Assembly: GCF_013315695.1 (NCBI RefSeq)
Contig: NZ_CP054353.1
Strand: one strand, 5' to 3'
Length of the DNA: 64,000 nt
DNA from: Escherichia coli
Lineage (GTDB): Bacteria; Pseudomonadota; Gammaproteobacteria; Enterobacterales; Enterobacteriaceae
Part shown: positions 13,153 to 51,548 of the stretch, piece after piece
Layout of the letters: each line of letters starts with the position of its first letter
How positions within the stretch are numbered: position 1 is the first letter of the stretch
Notes under the pieces: generated by a model
Told to the model about the DNA's origin: nothing
Databases searched by the model: none
The model's input: only the letters and a program-made list of their open reading frames with translations
Program-made: the position numbers and the translations under genes

Positions 13153-16519
<3,367 letters not shown>

Positions 16520-16585
16520 TCAGTAAAAGCGAATGGAGGGAGATTACACGAGATAAAGAACGCGAGCGACAGTAAATTAGGTGCG

Positions 16586-16673
16586 AAAAAAAACCTGCGC
16601 ATCCGCGCAGGTTGGTGCAAGAGACAGGGTACGAAGAGCGTACCGAATAATCTCACCAATCAATACCTCTGGG
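16586..16673 (-). ncRNA. omrA: OmrA small regulatory RNA (Hfq-dependent, OmpR-regulated)
   Basis: Reverse complement reads cccagaggtattgattggtgagattattcggtacgctcttcgtaccctgtctcttgcaccaacctgcgcggatgcgcaggtttttttt, matching the recalled OmrA sequence with its terminator hairpin and U-tract; located between aas and galR. Confidence 0.9.
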
Positions 16674-16787
16674 ATCTTGATTGTGGTCTGCACAACGACT
16701 CTTCGCCAGCGAGAAAACGCAAAGGAATGAAGGGAAATGCAACGAGGTGTGTAAATTGTCGGTTACTGTTACAGATTGATGACCGGC

Positions 16788-16870
16788 AAAAAAAAACCTG
16801 CGCATCTGCGCAGGCTGGTGTAATTCATGTGCTCAACCCGAAGTTGACTTCACCTATCAATACCTCTGGG
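16788..16870 (-). ncRNA. omrB: OmrB small regulatory RNA
   Basis: Reverse complement cccagaggtattgataggtgaagtcaacttcgggttgagcacatgaattacaccagcctgcgcagatgcgcaggttttttttt; shares 5-prime and 3-prime ends with OmrA, tandem arrangement. Confidence 0.9.
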
Positions 16871-17083
16871 ATCACCACTTTAGCAACCTGAAGCCAAACG
16901 CCACCAGCGGTCAATCGCAACAGCGTTTCGCAAAGTGTAACCAAAGGTTTGCAATCTCTTTTTTTGTCTTACTTATTTGCGTTTGGCTCACATTCCCACG
17001 ATGAAAACACGCCCCCCCTTGAACCAACGGGCGTTTTCCGTAACACTGAAAGAATGTAAGCGTTTACCCACTAAGGTATTTTC

Positions 17084-18115
17084 ATGGCGACCATAAAGGA
17101 TGTAGCCCGACTGGCAGGCGTTTCAGTCGCCACCGTTTCCCGCGTCATTAATAATTCACCCAAAGCCAGCGAAGCTTCCCGGCTTGCTGTGCATAGTGCA
17201 ATGGAGTCTCTTAGCTATCACCCGAACGCCAACGCCCGTGCGCTGGCGCAGCAGACCACTGAAACGGTCGGTCTGGTCGTTGGTGATGTTTCCGATCCGT
17301 TTTTCGGTGCAATGGTGAAAGCGGTCGAACAGGTGGCTTATCACACTGGTAATTTTTTATTGATTGGCAACGGTTACCACAACGAACAAAAAGAGCGTCA
17401 GGCCATTGAGCAACTGATCCGCCATCGCTGTGCTGCGCTGGTTGTCCATGCCAAAATGATCCCGGATGCCGATTTAGCCTCATTAATGAAACAAATGCCC
17501 GGTATGGTGCTGATCAACCGTATCCTGCCTGGCTTTGAAAACCGTTGTATTGCTCTGGACGATCGTTACGGTGCCTGGCTGGCAACGCGTCATTTAATTC
17601 AGCAAGGTCATACCCGCATTGGTTATCTGTGCTCTAACCACTCTATTTCTGACGCCGAAGATCGTCTGCAAGGGTATTACGATGCCCTTGCTGAAAGTGG
17701 TATTCCGACCAATGATCGGCTGGTGACATTTGGCGAACCAGACGAAAGCGGCGGTGAACAGGCAATGACCGAGCTTTTGGGACGAGGAAGAAATTTCACT
17801 GCGGTAGCCTGTTATAACGATTCAATGGCGGCGGGCGCGATGGGCGTTCTCAATGATAATGGTATTGATGTACCGGGTGAGATTTCGTTAATTGGCTTTG
17901 ATGATGTGCTGGTGTCACGCTATGTGCGTCCGCGCCTGACCACCGTGCGTTACCCAATCGTGACGATGGCGACCCAGGCTGCCGAACTGGCTTTGGCGCT
18001 GGCGGATAATCGCCCTCTCCCGGAAATCACTAATGTCTTTAGTCCGACGCTGGTACGTCGCCATTCAGTGTCAACTCCGTCGCTGGAGGCAAGTCATCAT
18101 GCAACCAGCGACTAA
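17084..18115 (+). CDS. galR: galactose operon repressor (LacI family)
   Basis: 343-aa ORF beginning MATIKDVARLAGVSVATVSRVINNSPKASEASR (LacI-type HTH). Confidence 0.95.
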   Translation: MATIKDVARLAGVSVATVSRVINNSPKASEASRLAVHSAMESLSYHPNANARALAQQTTETVGLVVGDVSDPFFGAMVKAVEQVAYHTGNFLLIGNGYHNEQKERQAIEQLIRHRCAALVVHAKMIPDADLASLMKQMPGMVLINRILPGFENRCIALDDRYGAWLATRHLIQQGHTRIGYLCSNHSISDAEDRLQGYYDALAESGIPTNDRLVTFGEPDESGGEQAMTELLGRGRNFTAVACYNDSMAAGAMGVLNDNGIDVPGEISLIGFDDVLVSRYVRPRLTTVRYPIVTMATQAAELALALADNRPLPEITNVFSPTLVRRHSVSTPSLEASHHATSD

Positions 18116-38610: not shown

Positions 38611-38657
38611 AAGTCCTCCTCAATTATTCCTGAAATGTCCACTTGCTACCTTGAGAC

Positions 38658-39425
38658 GGTGATGCTGCCAACTTACTGATTTAGTGTATGATGGTGTTTT
38701 TGAGGTGCTCCAGTGGCTTCTGTTTCTATCAGCTGTCCCTCCTGTTCAGCTACTGACGGGGTGGTGCGTAACGGCAAAAGCACCGCCGGACATCAGCGCT
38801 ATCTCTGCTCTCACTGCCGTAAAACATGGCAACTGCAGTTCACTTACACCGCTTCTCAACCCGGTACGCACCAGAAAATCATTGATATGGCCATGAATGG
38901 CGTTGGATGCCGGGCAACAGCCCGCATTATGGGCGTTGGCCTCAACACGATTTTACGTCACTTAAAAAACTCAGGCCGCAGTCGGTAACCTCGCGCATAC
39001 AGCCGGGCAGTGACGTCATCGTCTGCGCGGAAATGGACGAACAGTGGGGCTATGTCGGGGCTAAATCGCGCCAGCGCTGGCTGTTTTACGCGTATGACAG
39101 GCTCCGGAAGACGGTTGTTGCGCACGTATTCGGTGAACGCACTATGGCGACGCTGGGGCGTCTTATGAGCCTGCTGTCACCCTTTGACGTGGTGATATGG
39201 ATGACGGATGGCTGGCCGCTGTATGAATCCCGCCTGAAGGGAAAGCTGCACGTAATCAGCAAGCGATATACGCAGCGAATTGAGCGGCATAACCTGAATC
39301 TGAGGCAGCACCTGGCACGGCTGGGACGGAAGTCGCTGTCGTTCTCAAAATCGGTGGAGCTGCATGACAAAGTCATCGGGCATTATCTGAACATAAAACA
39401 CTATCAATAAGTTGGAGTCATTACC
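38658..39425 (+). mobile_element. insAB: IS1 insertion sequence, copy A (768 bp; insA 38713-38988, insB 38907-39410)
   Basis: Terminal inverted repeats ggtgatgctgccaacttactgat ... atcaataagttggagtcattacc; InsA (91 aa) and overlapping InsB (167 aa) frames. Confidence 0.97.
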
Positions 39426-39907
39426 GACTTAATGTTATCCCGATAACTCTTCCACCGCTGCGTGAACGTCAGGAAGATATTGAATTACTGGTGCATTACT
39501 TTTTACATCTGCATACCCGTCGTCTGGGATCGGTTTATCCTGGCATTGCTCCGGATGTCGTCGAAATATTGCGTAAGCATCGTTGGCCCGGAAACCTGCG
39601 CGAGTTAAGCAATTTGATGGAATATCTGGTTAACGTGGTTCCTTCAGGTGAAGTTATCGACAGCACGCTATTGCCACCAAATCTGCTGAATAATGGCACA
39701 ACGGAGCAAAGTGATGTAACAGAGGTCAGTGAGGCGCACCTGTCACTCGATGATGCGGGCGGCACGGCGCTGGAGGAGATGGAAAAGCAAATGATCCGCG
39801 AGGCGCTTTCACGTCATAACAGCAAGAAGGAAGTTGCTGATGAACTGGGCATCGGCATTGCTACGCTCTATCGCAAGATTAAGAAATATGAGTTGTTAAA
39901 CACATAA
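39426..39907 (+). pseudogene. ygeV: 3-prime fragment of sigma-54-dependent activator gene ygeV, truncated by IS1
   Basis: The frame is open from the first base after IS1 (LNVIPITLPPLRERQEDIELLVHYFLHLH...), encoding only the end of the AAA+ domain and the C-terminal Fis-type HTH; no N-terminal domain is present. Confidence 0.8.
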
Positions 39908-39946
39908 CCTCAGTGAATCCGGTCTGAATTCAGGCCGGATATCCTT

Positions 39947-40426
39947 TTACTTCGTTTTCTCGCAATCCAGAACTGTATTTACAATCATCTGATACCCCGT
40001 GCAGCGACAAAGATTTCCCGCCAGTCCGCGACGAATTTCCGTAATGGTTAATGGCTTCTCGCGTGGTTTCGCCAGCATTGCCGTGGTAGCCATAATCAGG
40101 CCAGGCGTACAAAACCCGCACTGCACTGCGCCGGATTTCGCATAAGCCTGCTGAACATGAGAAAGTTTTCCGCCTTTCGCTTCACCTTCAAGCGTGCGGA
40201 TCTCTTTTCCTTCAGCCCAGGCGGCAAGGTATAAGCAACTGTCTATTGCTGTGCCGTCGACCAGCACCGTACAGGCACCACATTCACCCACGCAGCACCC
40301 TTGTTTGACACTTAGCAGTCCTTGTTCGCGGAGTAATTCCGAGAGCGGCGTGCCTGGTGCGGCATGAAGCTGAAAAGGCATCCCGTTAATGGTGCATTCG
40401 ATGGTAATTGTTTCGCTGTGATTCAT
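39947..40426 (-). CDS. xdhC: xanthine dehydrogenase Fe-S subunit (2Fe-2S ferredoxin-like)
   Basis: 159-aa ORF with two [2Fe-2S] cysteine clusters ([11 protein letters not shown] and CGFCTPG). Confidence 0.9.
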
Positions 40427-41301
40427 TGCAATTTTCCCCCCGCCGCGGCGACGGCTTCGCTAATCACTTTTTTGGTCATCGTCTGGATGAGATGCAGACG
40501 AAACTCTTTACTGGCCCGCCATGAAGAACGCGGGGCGACATCTTGCAGGACAGATTCGCTGATAGCTTCCAGCGTTTGCAGGTTTAATGGCGCATTTTGT
40601 GCAGTCTGTTCGGCATGTTGGCAGCGAATCGGCGTTGGCGCGGCAACACCAAATGCCAGGCGTAATTCGCTGAAATTGCCGTTATCCAGTCGGCAATGTG
40701 CGGCACAGCCAATCGTTGAAATATCCATTGCGTCGCGCATGGCATATTTAAAATGCGCGCTGCCCGCGTGTTCTTTCGGCTGGGGCGGAAAATGAAAGGC
40801 GACAAGGATTTCGTCATGCTCAAGAGACACTTTGCCCGGCCCAGTGTGAAAGCCATTAATCGGGACGAAACGAACACCGCGCGGGGAGTGAATCTCCAGT
40901 GTCGCGTCATAAATTAGCGTTGGCGTGGCAGAATCTGCGCTGGTAGCACCGTTGCAAATATTTCCACCGTAGGTAGCGACGTTACGGATCTGCGGTCCGG
41001 CAATGGACGAGGCCGCAGCACATAACGCTGGGAGATGACGTTGAGTTACAGGATCTTCAATGAGCTGGGTAAATGTCGTTGCAGAGCCGATACGTAGTGA
41101 GCCATCTTCCGCCAGCGTAATTCCCCGCAGCTCCGCCAGATTATGAATATCAACAATATGGCGATAACGGTCATTGTGATGGTGGAGCTGAATCAGTACG
41201 TCAGTGCCACCGGCGAGCAGTTTGGCCTGCGGGTTGTCAGCCAGCAGGTTGATGGCATCGGCAAGGGTTGCTGCGCGATGGTAAGAAGCAAAATCAAACA
41301 T
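40423..41301 (-). CDS. xdhB: xanthine dehydrogenase FAD-binding subunit
   Basis: 292-aa ORF with CO dehydrogenase flavoprotein-like sequence; overlaps xdhC by 4 nt. Confidence 0.9.
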
Positions 41302-41311
41302 GATGTTATCC

Positions 41312-43570
41312 TCAAATCAATCCTGCCAGATGGAACTCTTCATATAACCGTTTTGGCGTCAGCGGCAGTGTATTGATTGCAACACCGGTAGCCATCTTCA
41401 CCGCGTTACGAATAGCAGCGGCAACAGGAATTATTGGTGGCTCACCCAGTGACTTATGTCCGTATGCGGATTGCGGCTCATTGATTTCGACGAACGCGCT
41501 TTCCAGTTGTGGCAGATCCGGCATGGTCGGCATTTTGTAATCCAGCAGATTGGGGTTACGGACCACGCCGCTTTTCGCATCGATGATCATCTCTTCAAAT
41601 AGCGCCCAGCCAATGCCCATTCCCATTCCGCCGTGTACCTGACCTTCTGCCAGCAGCGGATTTAGAATATGCCCCGAATCATGAACGTTGAGGATGCGGT
41701 TGATGGTGACTTTGCACAGTGCAATATCGACCGTCAGATCAACAAAGGTACAGCCGAACGCCGGTGGGTTAGTGGTGGTTTTGATGGAGCTTTCAGCAGA
41801 GAGCTGCCCGCCGCGTTCAGGGTGGTAGAAAGCGTCCATCGCCAAATCTTTTAACGACATTAACGGTTCTTCCGGTCGTTCAATCAGCACGATATGGCCT
41901 TTTATCAGGGTCAGATTCATCGCTGACTGATGTAGCATGACTGCGGCGTGAGCGATGATTTTCTCTTTTAATAACAGTGCCGCACTGCGCAGCGCAGGCG
42001 CGGCAACATAGCTCTGGCGTGAGGCAAATGCGCCGGGATCGAACGGCGTAACATCGGTATCTTGTGTTGAAATAACGCGAACGTCGCTGACCGGAACCCC
42101 CACGGTTTCTGCCACCATTTGCGAGAAGACGGTGTCGGCACCCTGACCGATTTCCGTCGCGCCGCTTTGCACGTTGATGGTTCCATCCTGATTCATCAGA
42201 AGGCGCGCGCCTGCTATTTCTACGCCGACAGGCCAGGTGTTCGAGGTGTAGCTAAAACAGGCGACGCCAACGCCGCGGCGTAAATTGCCTTTCTGGTTCT
42301 GGCACTCTGCACGGCGTTTTTCCCATTCAAAGATTTTCCGGCCTTTTTCAAGACACTCCGGCAACCCTGCGCTGTAAATACGTTTGCCCGTGAGCGGATT
42401 AGCATCTCCTTCGCGGGCGGCGTTGCGTAAACGAATTTCAACAGGATCAATACCTAACGCTGTCGCGGCGTCATCAAGCATAGACTCAACGGCAAATACG
42501 ACTTGTGGCGCGCCATAACCACGCATCGCACCAGCTGAGGGGAGGTTGGTATAGCAGGTCTTTGAACTGTAAGCGTAGGCACAACGAGGATAAAGGTAAG
42601 CGACTTTATTCCCCCCCGCAGAAGCGATGGAGTGCCCGTGAGATGCGTAAGCGCCGGTGTTAGACAGAACATCCAGACTATAACCTTTCAATGTTCCGTC
42701 GCGGTTCACGCCCATTTGCCCGTCAATAGTAAAAGCGTGGCGGGTACGGGTTGCGAGGAAACACTCTTCACGGCTAAGGGAAACTTTCATCGGAATGCCG
42801 CCAAGCTTGCTGGTCAGGAATGCCGCCATTGGCTCTTCCAGTACATCCTGTTTATTACCAAAACCGCCACCGACAAACGGTTTGATGACTCGTACGCATG
42901 ACCAGGGAATATTCAGCGCCTGACCAACCACACGGCGAACAATGTGTGGGATCTGGGTGCTGGAAACGATGGTAATTCGCGAGTCATCCTCCATCCATGC
43001 CAGCGATGTCACGCTTTCCATGTGACAATGTTGAATGACCGGCGTCTGATAGTGCCCCTGTACCTGGTAGTCGGCGGCATCGATTGTTTGTTGGACATTG
43101 CCCGTCGACATCGTGCTTTGTTTTAGTAAATTGCCGCCGTTATGGATTGGTTCAGCGTCATCAGCCAGCGCCGCTTCTGGGGTGGTGATAACGGGTAATT
43201 CTTGCCACTCAATGCTGACCAATTGCGCCGCTTTTTCTGCCGTGAGTTCATCACGGGCCACGACGATGGCAACGGCGTCACCATGGTGACGAACATGGCG
43301 AGTTAGCAGTGCGCGATCGGCGGTATCGCGCTTGTTTTCGTCAAGTGTCCAGGCATGCCCAGCTGTAGCGAATGGGATATCAGGCACATCTTCCCAGGTA
43401 AAAATCGCCAGTACGCCCGGTAAACTTCTGGCTTGTTCATCATTAATACTTACGGCATAACCATGTGCGATAGGGCTACGTACATATTTCGCGTAACACA
43501 TGCCCGCCATAACATAATCGTCAGTATATCGTGCCCGCCCGGTGACCTTAGCAATGGCATCTACGCGCAT
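41312..43570 (-). CDS. xdhA: xanthine dehydrogenase molybdopterin-binding subunit
   Basis: Track ORF trimmed to MRVDAIAKVTGRARYTDD..., 752 aa, aldehyde oxidase/xanthine dehydrogenase family. Confidence 0.92.
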   Translation of the reverse strand: MRVDAIAKVTGRARYTDDYVMAGMCYAKYVRSPIAHGYAVSINDEQARSLPGVLAIFTWEDVPDIPFATAGHAWTLDENKRDTADRALLTRHVRHHGDAVAIVVARDELTAEKAAQLVSIEWQELPVITTPEAALADDAEPIHNGGNLLKQSTMSTGNVQQTIDAADYQVQGHYQTPVIQHCHMESVTSLAWMEDDSRITIVSSTQIPHIVRRVVGQALNIPWSCVRVIKPFVGGGFGNKQDVLEEPMAAFLTSKLGGIPMKVSLSREECFLATRTRHAFTIDGQMGVNRDGTLKGYSLDVLSNTGAYASHGHSIASAGGNKVAYLYPRCAYAYSSKTCYTNLPSAGAMRGYGAPQVVFAVESMLDDAATALGIDPVEIRLRNAAREGDANPLTGKRIYSAGLPECLEKGRKIFEWEKRRAECQNQKGNLRRGVGVACFSYTSNTWPVGVEIAGARLLMNQDGTINVQSGATEIGQGADTVFSQMVAETVGVPVSDVRVISTQDTDVTPFDPGAFASRQSYVAAPALRSAALLLKEKIIAHAAVMLHQSAMNLTLIKGHIVLIERPEEPLMSLKDLAMDAFYHPERGGQLSAESSIKTTTNPPAFGCTFVDLTVDIALCKVTINRILNVHDSGHILNPLLAEGQVHGGMGMGIGWALFEEMIIDAKSGVVRNPNLLDYKMPTMPDLPQLESAFVEINEPQSAYGHKSLGEPPIIPVAAAIRNAVKMATGVAINTLPLTPKRLYEEFHLAGLI

Positions 43571-44024
43571 GCATGATTCACCTGTAGCGGTTGCTTCCCG
43601 CGCTTCCATAGAAATCCCCTCGATTTGAACATTTGGTTCTTATGGCAAAGATTTAGTCTAAGCAGGCAAGATTTACGCCAGAAACGACGATAAGCGTTAA
43701 GGGAGGAAGGAAGTGTGATGATGTTAAAAAAACACAGATATGATACGAAACAGGACCCTGAATAGGGGCAGTGATACGTATCAATATCAGTGGCGATAAA
43801 ATCAATGTGATAAATTGGGATTATTACGCATCAGGATGGGAAATAGGGTAAATGAGTCAGGAAATTCGATACCTCTACAGTGAATATTTTGCTGATGATA
43901 CTTCCCTTTGCCAAATGAAATTAACCTCTTTCTCTATTACCGCGTTTTTCCAGAAGCAAGAGATTGGGTATCAAGAGGCTGGCTGCTATGATATGGCGTC
44001 TTGTTTTTTAAGCGAGGAAAGATT

Positions 44025-44777
44025 TTGAGTGCGGGACGCCTGAATAAAAAATCTCTGGGTATCGTGATGTTGTTATCGGTTGGACTGCTTTTGGCGGGCT
44101 GCTCGGGTAGCAAATCATCCGATACAGGAACGTATTCCGGCTCCGTTTACACCGTGAAACGGGGGGATACGCTATATCGTATTTCGCGCACCACGGGAAC
44201 CAGCGTAAAAGAGCTGGCGCGACTGAACGGCATTTCCCCCCCTTACACCATTGAAGTTGGTCAGAAACTAAAACTGGGTGGGGCGAAAAGTAGCAGTACA
44301 CGTAAATCAACCGCCAAATCAACGACCAAAACCGCATCGGTTACACCGTCATCAGCAGTACCGAAATCTTCCTGGCCGCCAGTAGGGCAACGTTGTTGGT
44401 TATGGCCAACGACAGGGAAAGTTATCATGCCGTATTCGACAGCTGATGGCGGCAATAAAGGGATTGATATCTCAGCTCCACGGGGTACACCTATTTACGC
44501 TGCGGGTGCAGGAAAGGTGGTGTATGTGGGCAACCAGCTGCGTGGCTACGGTAATCTCATCATGATTAAACACAGTGAAGATTACATTACGGCTTACGCC
44601 CATAATGACACGATGCTGGTAAATAATGGGCAAAGCGTGAAGGCTGGGCAAAAAATCGCCACTATGGGGAGCACTGATGCGGCATCTGTTCGCCTGCATT
44701 TCCAGATTCGTTACCGTGCAACGGCAATTGATCCGCTACGTTACTTGCCGCCTCAGGGCAGCAAGCCAAAATGCTGA
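44025..44777 (+). CDS. ygeR: LysM + M23 peptidase-family lipoprotein
   Basis: Probable TTG start at 44025 preceded by gaggaaag; lipobox LLLAGCSG, LysM domain (YTVKRGDTLYRISRTTG) and M23/LytM-like C-terminus. Confidence 0.85.
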   Translation: MSAGRLNKKSLGIVMLLSVGLLLAGCSGSKSSDTGTYSGSVYTVKRGDTLYRISRTTGTSVKELARLNGISPPYTIEVGQKLKLGGAKSSSTRKSTAKSTTKTASVTPSSAVPKSSWPPVGQRCWLWPTTGKVIMPYSTADGGNKGIDISAPRGTPIYAAGAGKVVYVGNQLRGYGNLIMIKHSEDYITAYAHNDTMLVNNGQSVKAGQKIATMGSTDAASVRLHFQIRYRATAIDPLRYLPPQGSKPKC

Positions 44778-44855
44778 TGGCGAATTAATCAGCAGTCAGC
44801 AGCGCGGCACTTGCTAAGGAGAGCGTAAGGTTTATAATGCCTTACGCATCTCGAA

Positions 44856-44929
44856 GCGGGCGTAGTTCAATGGTAGAACGAGAGCTTCCCAAGCTCTATA
44901 CGAGGGTTCGATTCCCTTCGCCCGCTCCA
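44856..44929 (+). tRNA. glyU: tRNA-Gly (anticodon CCC)
   Basis: 74-nt cloverleaf gcgggcgtagttcaatggtagaacgagagcttcccaagctctatacgagggttcgattcccttcgcccgctcca; anticodon loop ttCCCaa; 3-prime CCA encoded. Confidence 0.95.
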
Positions 44930-45162
44930 ATTTATCTTCACCTCATCAATCTGCCATTTTTGCTGTATCTGATTTTCTATATTATCTTAATTCAATCGCT
45001 TCAGACTTTTCGCAATCGCTGTAACACTTCCCCATTTTTTTGTAAATAAAAAGCGTTTACGCAATGCAATCCTTTTGTAACAACCCAGGTAAAATACCTT
45101 ATTTTCAAGTTGTTAAATAAGTGGTTATCTACGCTTTTAACAAACGATTGATGGAATCTTTT

Positions 45163-46608
45163 ATGAAAGGGAAATCTACATTAACTCTTCTGCTCGCTGG
45201 TATATTTTCGTACGGCACATGCCAGGCGGCAGGGGCAGAAGTGACGAGTGAATCTGTATTTAACATTCTTAATTCCACGGGGGCAGCAACTGATAAAAGT
45301 TATTTATCGTTAAATCCAGATAAGTATCCTAATTATCGTCTTCTGATTCACTCAGCCAAATTAAAAAATGAAATAAAGAGCCACTATACCAAAGACGAAA
45401 TTCAAGGATTGTTAACATTAACAGAAAATACACGAAAGTTAACGTTGACGGAGAAACCCTGGGGAACATTTATTCTTGCTTCTACTTTCGAAGATGACAA
45501 AACAGCGGCAGAAACCCACTATGATGCTGTCTGGCTGAGGGATAGTTTATGGGGCTATATGGCATTAGTATCAGATCAGGGAAATAGTGTAGCCGCAAAA
45601 AAGGTTCTGCTCACTCTGTGGGAATATATGTCTACGCCCGACCAGATTAAGCGGATGCAGGACGTCATTAGCAACCCAAAACGACTGGATGGTATTCCTG
45701 GGCAAATGAATGCTGTACATATCCGATTTGACAGCAACTCCCCCGTGATGGCAGATGTGCAGGAAGAAGGCAAGCCGCAGCTGTGGAACCATAAACAAAA
45801 TGATGCGTTAGGTCTTTATCTTGATCTCCTTATACAAGCAATCGACACTGGTACTATTAACGCTGAAGATTGGCAAAAAGGTGACCGATTAAAATCGGTT
45901 GCGCTGCTGATTGCTTATCTGGATAAAGCCAATTTCTATGTTATGGAAGATTCCGGAGCGTGGGAGGAAGATGCCCGATTAAACACATCTTCCGTTGCAC
46001 TGGTGACCTCTGGACTGGAACGTTTGTCAAACCTACTCTCGAAGAAAGACTCTGTTTTTGTCTCTGATTTACTACGCGAAGCTAAAGCCAATGAACTGGA
46101 TGAACCACTTTCAACAACGAGGTTGAACCACCTCATAGATAAAGGTTATGAAAGAATAACGCTACAGCTTGATTTAGGGGGAGAATCTCCTGGTTATCTG
46201 GAAAAAGATAAACATTACAGAGAAGCCGATGCGGCTTTACTTAATGTTATTTATCCTGCAAATCTTTCAAAGATAAACACCAGAAGAAAAGAGCAAGTTC
46301 TAAAAATAGTTAAAAAACTAGCAGGTCCGTATGGTATAAAAAGATACGAGAAGGATAATTATCAGTCGGCAAATTTTTGGTTCAATGATATTAAAACCGA
46401 TACCGATCAAAATTCACATGCGAAAAGAGAAATGAGCTTCATTCCATCAACAGAAGCAGAATGGTTTTTTGACTCATGGTATGCAAAATCAGCAGCAATT
46501 GTTTATAAAGAATCAAGAAAAGAAGAGTATTTGAATGACTCAGTGCAATTTATGAATAGATCATTGGCCCAAATAACAGGCGAGAAGGTAATGACTCCAA
46601 CTTATTGA
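45163..46608 (+). CDS. glycoside hydrolase family 15 (glucoamylase-like) lipoprotein, ygeQ-like; 3-prime end runs into IS1
   Basis: Long ORF with signal peptide/lipobox ([16 protein letters not shown]) and GH15-like motif (DAVWLRDS); the last ~7 codons and the stop are supplied by IS1 sequence starting at 46587, so the native C-terminus is missing; start codon uncertain (45121-45163). Confidence 0.6.
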
Positions 46609-47354
46609 TAGTGTTTTATGTTCAGATAATGCCCGATGACTTTGTCATGCAGCTCCACCGATTTTGAGAACGACAGCGACTTCCGTCCCAGCCGTGCCAG
46701 GTGCTGCCTCAGATTCAGGTTATGCCGCTCAATTCGCTGCGTATATCGCTTGCTGATTACGTGCAGCTTTCCCTTCAGGCGGGATTCATACAGCGGCCAG
46801 CCATCCGTCATCCATATCACCACGTCAAAGGGTGACAGCAGGCTCATAAGACGCCCCAGCGTCGCCATAGTGCGTTCACCGAATACGTGCGCAACAACCG
46901 TCTTCCGGAGCCTGTCATACGCGTAAAACAGCCAGCGCTGGCGCGATTTAGCCCCGACATAGCCCCACTGTTCGTCCATTTCCGCGCAGACGATGACGTC
47001 ACTGCCCGGCTGTATGCGCGAGGTTACCGACTGCGGCCTGAGTTTTTTAAGTGACGTAAAATCGTGTTGAGGCCAACGCCCATAATGCGGGCTGTTGCCC
47101 GGCATCCAACGCCATTCATGGCCATATCAATGATTTTCTGGTGCGTACCGGGTTGAGAAGCGGTGTAAGTGAACTGCAGTTGCCATGTTTTACGGCAGTG
47201 AGAGCAGAGATAGCGCTGATGTCCGGCGGTGCTTTTGCCGTTACGCACCACCCCGTCAGTAGCTGAACAGGAGGGACAGCTGATAGAAACAGAAGCCACT
47301 GGAGCACCTCAAAAACACCATCATACACTAAATCAGTAAGTTGGCAGCATCACC
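46587..47354 (-). mobile_element. insAB: IS1 insertion sequence, copy B (768 bp; insA 47024-47299, insB 46602-47105), inverted relative to copy A
   Basis: InsA and InsB ORFs identical in protein sequence to copy A but on the minus strand; terminal inverted repeats at 46587 and 47354. Confidence 0.97.
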
Positions 47355-50359: not shown

Positions 50360-51458
50360 TCATAACCCTGCTTTCAAACTTGCTTCGATAAATTGATCCA
50401 GGCTGCCGTCCAGCACGGCCTGCGTGTTGCGGGTTTCTACCCCGGTGCGCAGATCTTTAATGCGGGAGTCATCAAGGACATAAGAACGAATCTGGCTGCC
50501 CCAGCCGATGTCGGATTTGTTATCTTCCATCGCCTGTTTCTCGGCATTTTTCTTCTGCATCTCCAGTTCATAAAGCTTCGCTTTCATCTGCTTCATGGCC
50601 TGGTCTTTGTTCTTGTGCTGGGAACGGTCGTTCTGGCACTGAGTCACGATCCCGGTTGGGATGTGAGTAATACGCACCGCAGATTCGGTACGGTTAACGT
50701 GCTGACCGCCCGCGCCGGATGCGCGATAAACGTCGATGCGCAGATCCGCCGGATTGATTTCGATATCGATATCATCATCAACTTCCGGGTAAACAAACGC
50801 GGAGCTGAACGACGTGTGGCGACGACCGCCGGAGTCAAACGGGCTCTTACGCACCAGGCGGTGAACGCCGGTTTCTGTACGCAGCCAGCCATAAGCGTAA
50901 TCGCCGGAGATTTTGATCGTCACGGATTTAATACCCGCCACTTCACCTTCCGACTCTTCAATGATTTCAGTTTTGAAACCACGCGATTCAGCCCAGCGCA
51001 GATACATACGCTCAAGCATGCTCGCCCAGTCCTGTGCTTCCGTACCGCCAGACCCCGCCTGAATATCGAGGTAGCAGTCGGCGCTGTCATATTCGCCAGA
51101 GAACATACGGCGGAACTCAAGCTGCGCCAGTTTTTCTTCCAGGGCGTCGAGTTCAGCAACGGCTTCGTTAAAGGTTTCTTCGTCGTCAGCTTCTACAGCC
51201 AGTTCCAGCAGACCAGAAACATCTTCCAGCCCCTGCTTCATTTGGTCGAGGGTGTCGACAACGGCTTCGAGGGAGGAACGCTCTTTACCCAGCGCCTGTG
51301 CGCGTTCGGGTTCGTTCCAGACATCCGGCTGTTCCAGCTCGGCGTTTACTTCTTCCAGACGCTCTTTCTTGGCGTCATAGTCAAAGATACCCCCTAAGAA
51401 CGTCGGAGCGTTCCGTGAGGTCCTGAATGCGATTATTTATCGGATTAATTTCAAACAT
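50360..51458 (-). CDS. prfB: peptide chain release factor 2, expressed via programmed +1 ribosomal frameshift
   Basis: Frame 0 from ATG at 51456-51458 encodes [25 protein letters not shown] and then TGA (plus-strand 51381-51383) within the canonical slippery context AGG GGG UAU CUU UGA C; the +1 frame continues into the 293-aa track ORF (50360..51241) containing the GGQ motif. Confidence 0.95.
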
Positions 51459-51548
51459 GGTCTGATTTCTTTTATTGAGCTAGTCAAAATGCGGTGATAA
51501 GAGCGGGATTGTACCCAATCCACGCTCTTTTTTATAGAGAAGATGACG

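Follow-up and report, generated by a model that had tools for sequence, protein, structure and literature searches.

The sequence at 16586-16870 of the 64-kb window (the whole stretch of DNA analysed here) is the pair of known Escherichia coli sRNA genes omrB and omrA themselves, not a relative of them. We are all but certain that they constitute two same-strand, independent transcription units for the paralogous Hfq-binding sRNAs OmrB and OmrA, regulated in the manner proposed below. Gene identity and boundaries, RNA structure, promoter sequence features, conservation, and in silico pairing with ompT and ompR were all established directly in this work.

With RNA sequences identical to those of K-12, the value of the locus as a discovery is low; knowledge of OmrA and OmrB goes back to 2001 and their detailed characterisation to 2006. 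The practical value lies in annotation. Scans for unexplained conserved intergenic repeats can be expected to rediscover the omr pair again and again, and a single Rfam search settles the matter.

Identity and layout of the two genes

A scan of the whole 64-kb window at the Rfam gathering threshold returned three matches, a tRNA (44856-44926) and two members of RF00079 (OmrA-B). Both RF00079 matches are on the minus strand and cover the model in full (positions 1-87 of 87), with 96.6 bits at 16673..16586 and 86.1 bits at 16870..16789, compared with a gathering score of 40. An earlier note on this DNA had described two minus-strand units at 16586-16870 between aas and galR, had named them OmrA and OmrB, and had proposed an Rfam scan as a check. 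These claims were borne out: the range is the exact outer boundary of the two matches, the flanking genes agree (Table 1), both full-length matches score far above 40, and the 5´ seed is present. All features that define the family at the level of sequence were found, and no result argued against the assignment.

The aas-galR spacer spans 16499-17083 (585 nt). Read along the minus strand between 17200 and 16300, the order is the start of galR on the opposite strand, the unit beginning at 16870, the unit beginning at 16673, and the start of aas. By identity to the K-12 genes, the upstream, galR-proximal unit is omrB and the downstream, aas-proximal unit is omrA.

Table 1. Coordinates of the omr genes, their parts and their neighbours in the window
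Feature	Position	Strand	Basis or description
omrB gene, 82 nt	16789..16870	-	Rfam RF00079, 86.1 bits; identical to K-12 b4445; transcription start 16870, last annotated U 16789
omrA gene, 88 nt	16586..16673	-	Rfam RF00079, 96.6 bits; identical to K-12 b4444; transcription start 16673
OmrB 5´ target-pairing seed CCCAGAGGUAUUGAU	16856..16870	-	exact match; single-stranded in Rfam consensus structure
OmrA 5´ target-pairing seed, identical to that of OmrB	16659..16673	-	unpaired in MFE fold
omrB intrinsic terminator	16788..16816	-	stem-loop 16816..16795, then 9 T; scan, fold, cross-species pairing
omrA intrinsic terminator	16586..16613	-	stem-loop 16613..16592, then 8 T; scan, fold, cross-species pairing
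omrB promoter	16871..16950	-	-10 TAAAGT at 16882..16877 (-12T); conserved block -80..-34 (16950..16904)
omrA promoter	16674..16788	-	whole 115-nt spacer past omrB terminator; -10 CACAAT at 16685..16680 (-12C, -13C)
aas, flanking, downstream of omrA	14339..16498	-	
galR, divergent flanking, upstream of omrB	17084..18115	+	

The curated record of K-12 MG1655 has two ncRNA genes on the aas strand, omrA (b4444) of 88 nt beside aas and omrB (b4445) of 82 nt beside galR. Alignment to NC_000913.3 showed both RNAs to be 100% identical to K-12 over their annotated length, and the window thus shares with OmrA (also called RygA or SraE) and OmrB (RygB) of K-12, the RF00079 pair, the RNA sequences, the gene order, the strand and the position in the aas-galR spacer. 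The structure is also the same, consisting of a free 5´ seed, a variable hairpin closed by GGUG/CACC, and a terminator. Only three single-base differences separate the window from K-12 over 621 nt, all of them outside the annotated RNAs: a G for T at position -144 of omrB, an extra T immediately after the omrB U-tract (9 T versus 8, the ninth at 16788), and a T for C at -21 of the omrA promoter (16694). The omrB promoter is accordingly 100% identical to that of K-12 from -1 to -143, and the omrA promoter departs from its K-12 counterpart only at -21. These differences imply no functional difference; a slight effect of the 9-T terminator and the -21 T allele on OmrB/OmrA output is a remote possibility.

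A stronger version of this idea would be that only one copy is functional in the strain of the window, owing to the T at -21 of PomrA or to the extra T after the omrB terminator. Both differences from K-12 are real, but we judge this extremely improbable. Position -21 falls between the promoter hexamers, in a part of the PomrA alignment that is unconserved between genera, and a tract of nine T rather than eight should, if anything, help termination. With an 801-nt query, 5423 of 5426 complete E. coli genomes proved to carry the locus, in several cases at 100% identity. At least 99% identity was reached in 4350 records, and the exact allele is present at 100% in many unrelated isolates, which argues against a degenerating locus.

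The spacer can look empty in public data. The RefSeq record of AR_0077, annotated by PGAP and identical in sequence at the locus, lists only aas, galR and lysA there, so that the spacer carries no feature; of the records compared, the curated K-12 one alone gives the names omrA and omrB.

RNA structure and conservation of the pair

Exactly two copies of the sequence CCCAGAGGTATTGAT are present in the 64-kb window (16659-16673 and 16856-16870), both on the minus strand. Allowing up to two mismatches, 0.07 matches would be expected by chance, and none of 100 shuffles gave two. In pairwise alignment the first 15 nt of omrA and omrB are identical; over the first 21 nt the genes agree at 20 positions, and over the last 32 nt at 30. 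The middles diverge and differ in length by 6 nt. A repeat finder accordingly reported two blocks, one of 24 nt (96%, spacing 197) and one of 38 nt (89%, spacing 203), and no repeat in the sequence that separates them. A terminator scan found a hairpin of nine pairs (six of them G-C) with a 4-nt loop and a T-run in each unit, and the 3´-end hairpin also appears in the MFE folds (z = -2.7 and -2.9). The OmrA seed is unpaired in its MFE fold; part of the OmrB seed is weakly paired. The near-identical 5´ ends, divergent middles and terminator hairpins with a U-tract are as the earlier note had described them.

For a comparison across species, one genome per species was scanned with the 15-nt seed, and the Enterobacterales loci that we used are among the matches listed. 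The scan also produced many chance matches in unrelated phyla, about 555 being expected for a 15-mer in approximately 298 Gb on both strands. Running Rfam on 20 Enterobacterales loci, again among the matches listed, uncovered 29 further full-length Omr genes in 19 of the 20. Tandem pairs about 190-275 nt apart are present in E. albertii, Citrobacter, Enterobacter, Kosakonia, Pluralibacter, Serratia grimesii and Edwardsiella. Lelliottia, Superficieibacter, Shimwellia, Siccibacter, Dickeya and Serratia bockelmannii carry a single copy. Single matches were also obtained for Enterobacter sp. BIGb0383, Erwinia persicina and Pantoea sp. AS-PWVM4, although a second copy farther away could have escaped notice in the Erwinia and Pantoea loci, which are short.

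An alignment of 31 Omr genes from 18 species (28 distinct sequences) shows which parts of the RNA are kept. Columns 1-15, the seed, are invariant by construction, given that an exact match to the seed was the basis for choosing the loci, and we did not use them as evidence. Beyond the seed, GGUG (17-20) and UU.CACC are invariant; the middle varies in length, with indels of 1-18 nt. The variable middle hairpin could not be aligned across genera by MAFFT, and covariation was therefore counted for the outer stem and terminator only. In these two helices, standard pairs occupy 100% of 336 cells. Three terminator pairs show compensatory double changes, from G-C to A-U in seven distinct sequences, from U-A to C-G in two, and from C-G to U-A in two. 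The covariation score was reached by none of 500 shuffles, controls with slid partners dropped to 18-56% paired, and RNAalifold independently predicted the same two helices.

These data bear on the thought that the two blocks might be a non-functional direct repeat, a mini-array or the remnant of a mobile element rather than genes. The earlier note had warned that the units could be mistaken for a direct repeat, and with good reason: the repeat finder sees only two short direct-repeat families here (spacing 197 in one, 203 in the other), and no feature is annotated in the spacer in the pipeline-generated RefSeq record. Against this, both units match a curated covariance model over its full length and far over threshold, and from Escherichia to Edwardsiella and Pantoea the ends have been kept, with compensatory changes in the stems, although the middles have drifted. 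There are moreover two copies only, with no other in the window, and the curated K-12 record names both as ncRNA genes. On the strength of the RF00079 matches, the K-12 ncRNA annotation and the compensatory pairs, we rejected the reading as a plain repeat, to which we attach practically no probability.

Equally negligible is the chance that the region encodes small proteins: a six-frame list does contain overlapping ORFs of 49-78 aa (16423-16659 and 16653-16805 on the minus strand, 16581-16730 and 16727-16891 on the plus strand), but this list is purely mechanical, the invariant ends, the middle of variable length (indels of 1-18 nt) and the compensatory changes fit an RNA and are incompatible with a conserved frame, and the annotated records that we checked have no CDS in the spacer. 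The small ORFs were rejected on these grounds, the pattern of conservation being that of an RNA.

The single-copy loci of Lelliottia, Superficieibacter, Shimwellia, Dickeya, Siccibacter and Serratia bockelmannii have the same seed, stem and terminator as the genes in the window, at 80-93 bits in Rfam. They differ in having one gene in place of two; most have an upstream block of the PomrB type, and Siccibacter has one of the PomrA type.

Other duplicated sibling sRNAs that share a seed include RyhB/IsrE, GlmY/GlmZ, Qrr1-5 and Prr1/2. Such siblings resemble the Omr pair in several respects. The paralogs are tandem or dispersed, their pairing and terminator modules are conserved and their middles have diverged, and their promoters, which are partly different, serve to integrate different signals. 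They belong to other families with other seeds, regulators and targets, and the likeness is conceptual only.

A different arrangement is found in Pantoea stewartii (locus L031, 2747-4879), in which 2 kb rather than about 200 nt separate the omr genes; a similar spacing of about 2 kb occurs at another locus (L060). Between the two omr genes of P. stewartii, and on the same strand, lies a gene for a 579-aa FtsI-like penicillin-binding protein. With NF011685 it scores 687 bits, below the cutoff of 737, and it is probably a paralog.

Promoters, target pairing and proposed regulation

Promoter positions are numbered with +1 at the 5´ ends given by Rfam and by K-12, and the promoters were located through published numbering and conservation, not de novo. 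A scan of 16450-17150 for sigma-70 consensus promoters returned no sites, as is expected because both promoters are activator-dependent.

In PomrB, the conserved block at -80..-34 holds GTTACA at -71 and GTTGCG at -51; the OmpR-type hexamers, which are candidate sites, are GTTACA at -71 and GAAACG at -59. With mutations T-75C and A-68G in box B2, this promoter is no longer activated by multicopy RstAB, and its activation by OmpR is strongly reduced (PMC13425233, 2026). The window has T at -75 (16945) and A at -68 (16938), in agreement with the published mutant names (PMC13425233), and this serves as an independent check of 16870 as the transcription start.

The conserved blocks of PomrA are CTGTAACAG at -101..-93 (16774..16766) and a stretch at -79..-33 (16752..16706). 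Here the OmpR-type hexamers, again candidate sites, are GTAACA at -99, TTTACA at -82 and GTTGCA at -70. They are not in a clean 10-bp phase, and the sequence by itself therefore does not allow exact OmpR sites to be drawn. In vitro, both promoters are activated directly by OmpR-P on templates that start at -114, and PomrA truncated to -60 gives no activation by OmpR-P, so that sequence between -114 and -60 is needed (PMC5175337). The OmpR-type hexamers of both promoters fall inside blocks conserved across genera, and those of PomrA are within the -114..-60 interval needed for activation (PMC5175337). The upstream regions, which the earlier note had marked for inspection for OmpR boxes, contain these candidate hexamers inside blocks that are conserved in Enterobacterales. 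The two promoters also differ at the -10 element: according to a review, omrA is sigma-S-dependent via -12C and omrB has the canonical -12T (PMC12692685), and the -12C of PomrA and -12T of PomrB in the window fit this account.

Phylogenetic footprinting supports the OmpR-type hexamers. Over 17 upstream-type or single-copy promoters, AAACCTTTGGTTACACTTTGCG and GCTGTTGCGATTG.CCGCTGG (-80..-34) stand out and the rest is unalignable; over 11 downstream-type promoters, CTGTAACAG, ACACACCT.GTTGCATTTC, TCATTCCTTTGCGTTTTC.CGCTGG and CCACAAT are conserved. The boxes characteristic of the PomrA type are CTGTAACAG and CCACAAT, and those of the PomrB type are CCTTTGGTTACACTTTGCG and GCTGTTGCGATTG. When PomrA and PomrB of E. 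coli (16706-16752 and 16904-16950) are set side by side, they have in common a core of GTTrCA-N14-TTGCG-N6-CGCTGG at about -71..-33. This shared core suggests that the ancestral duplication included an OmpR-responsive promoter and that the flanking boxes may have diverged afterwards.

One single-copy locus departs from most of the others. In Siccibacter colletis (L081, 4050-4260, minus strand) the aas-galR spacer holds a single Omr gene with an OmrA-type RNA. Its promoter is likewise of the omrA type, with TGTAACAG, CACACCTGGTTGCA, CATTCCTTTGC and the -10 CCACAAT (sigma-S-like, -12C), and no second Omr copy was found in S. colletis even at Rfam E<=1. Single-copy species have been reported always to keep the omrB promoter (PMC13425233, 2026), in a paper whose main text does not name the genus Siccibacter. 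We see a slim chance that the case of S. colletis holds up as an exception to this rule. If it does, either paralog can be the survivor, and the idea of the omrB promoter as an indispensable ancestral module would be weakened.

Pairing with targets has been worked out experimentally for E. coli. Compensatory mutations demonstrated that the conserved 5´ end base-pairs close to the translation initiation regions of cirA, ompT and ompR; the pairing region comprises nt 2-10 and beyond, Hfq and RNase E are both required for regulation, and a feedback arises from repression of ompR-envZ (PMC2588501). We computed duplexes between the first 30 nt of each sRNA in the window and positions -60..+40 of K-12 ompT, cirA and ompR, with 29 gene starts from the window and shuffled seeds as controls. 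The segments at +13..+21 of ompT (CUUCUGGGA) and -18..-10 of ompR (CCUUUGGGA) are predicted to pair with nt 1-9 of the sRNAs at -20 to -22 kcal/mol. For OmrA, the predicted duplexes with ompT and with ompR are each stronger than those of all 29 control gene starts; for OmrB, the predicted duplexes are matched by one of the 29 controls for ompT and by two for ompR. Only 1-3% of shuffled seeds do as well on ompT and ompR. The predicted cirA duplex is no better than background, consistent with the short pairing reported for this target.

Expression of the pair, control by OmpR and sigma-S, Hfq dependence and the target set are taken from the literature and should apply here by virtue of sequence identity to K-12. 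The same literature agrees with the characterization of the pair, in the earlier note, as OmpR-controlled, Hfq-dependent repressors of outer-membrane protein mRNAs (PMC2588501, PMC5175337). In the model that we propose, each gene would have its own weak, activator-dependent promoter with OmpR-type sites at about -100 to -35, and its own intrinsic terminator. Phosphorylated OmpR would turn on both omrA and omrB; omrA would additionally depend on sigma-S via -12C, and omrB would use sigma-70. The identical single-stranded 5´ ends would then pair with short complementary segments at or near the translation initiation regions of mRNAs such as those of ompT, cirA, fecA, fepA, ompR, csgD and flhD, with Hfq binding the terminator and U-tail and assisting pairing. 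Such pairing would block translation and lead to RNase E-dependent decay, and repression of ompR-envZ would close a negative feedback loop.

Other features of the window

Several observations were made elsewhere in the window. The tRNA gene at 44856-44926 (plus strand) scores 71.6 bits in Rfam and is annotated as tRNA-Gly in an identical genome; its anticodon loop, CUUCCCAAG, identifies it as tRNA-Gly(CCC). This gene is part of a segment of 7161 nt (39426-46586) that is bracketed by two inverted, 100% identical IS1 copies of 768 nt (38658-39425 and 46587-47354) and that also contains a truncated HTH gene, xdhCBA, actS/ygeR and a GH15 gene. Collinearity with a strain in which ETT2 is complete stops at 38657, inside a type III secretion gene of the prgH/eprH family, where the left IS1 cuts the ETT2 island; the right IS1 copy abuts a truncated uacT. 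The arrangement over 12 kb here is shared, at 80% or more, by only 2 of 5426 complete E. coli genomes. Its best match, in MSB1_4I, begins exactly at 38658, and the left IS1 junction therefore appears to be strain-specific.

Finally, at 50360-51460 on the minus strand, prfB shows up as an ORF of 293 aa that has no start, consistent with the programmed +1 frameshift annotated for prfB in MSB1_4I.
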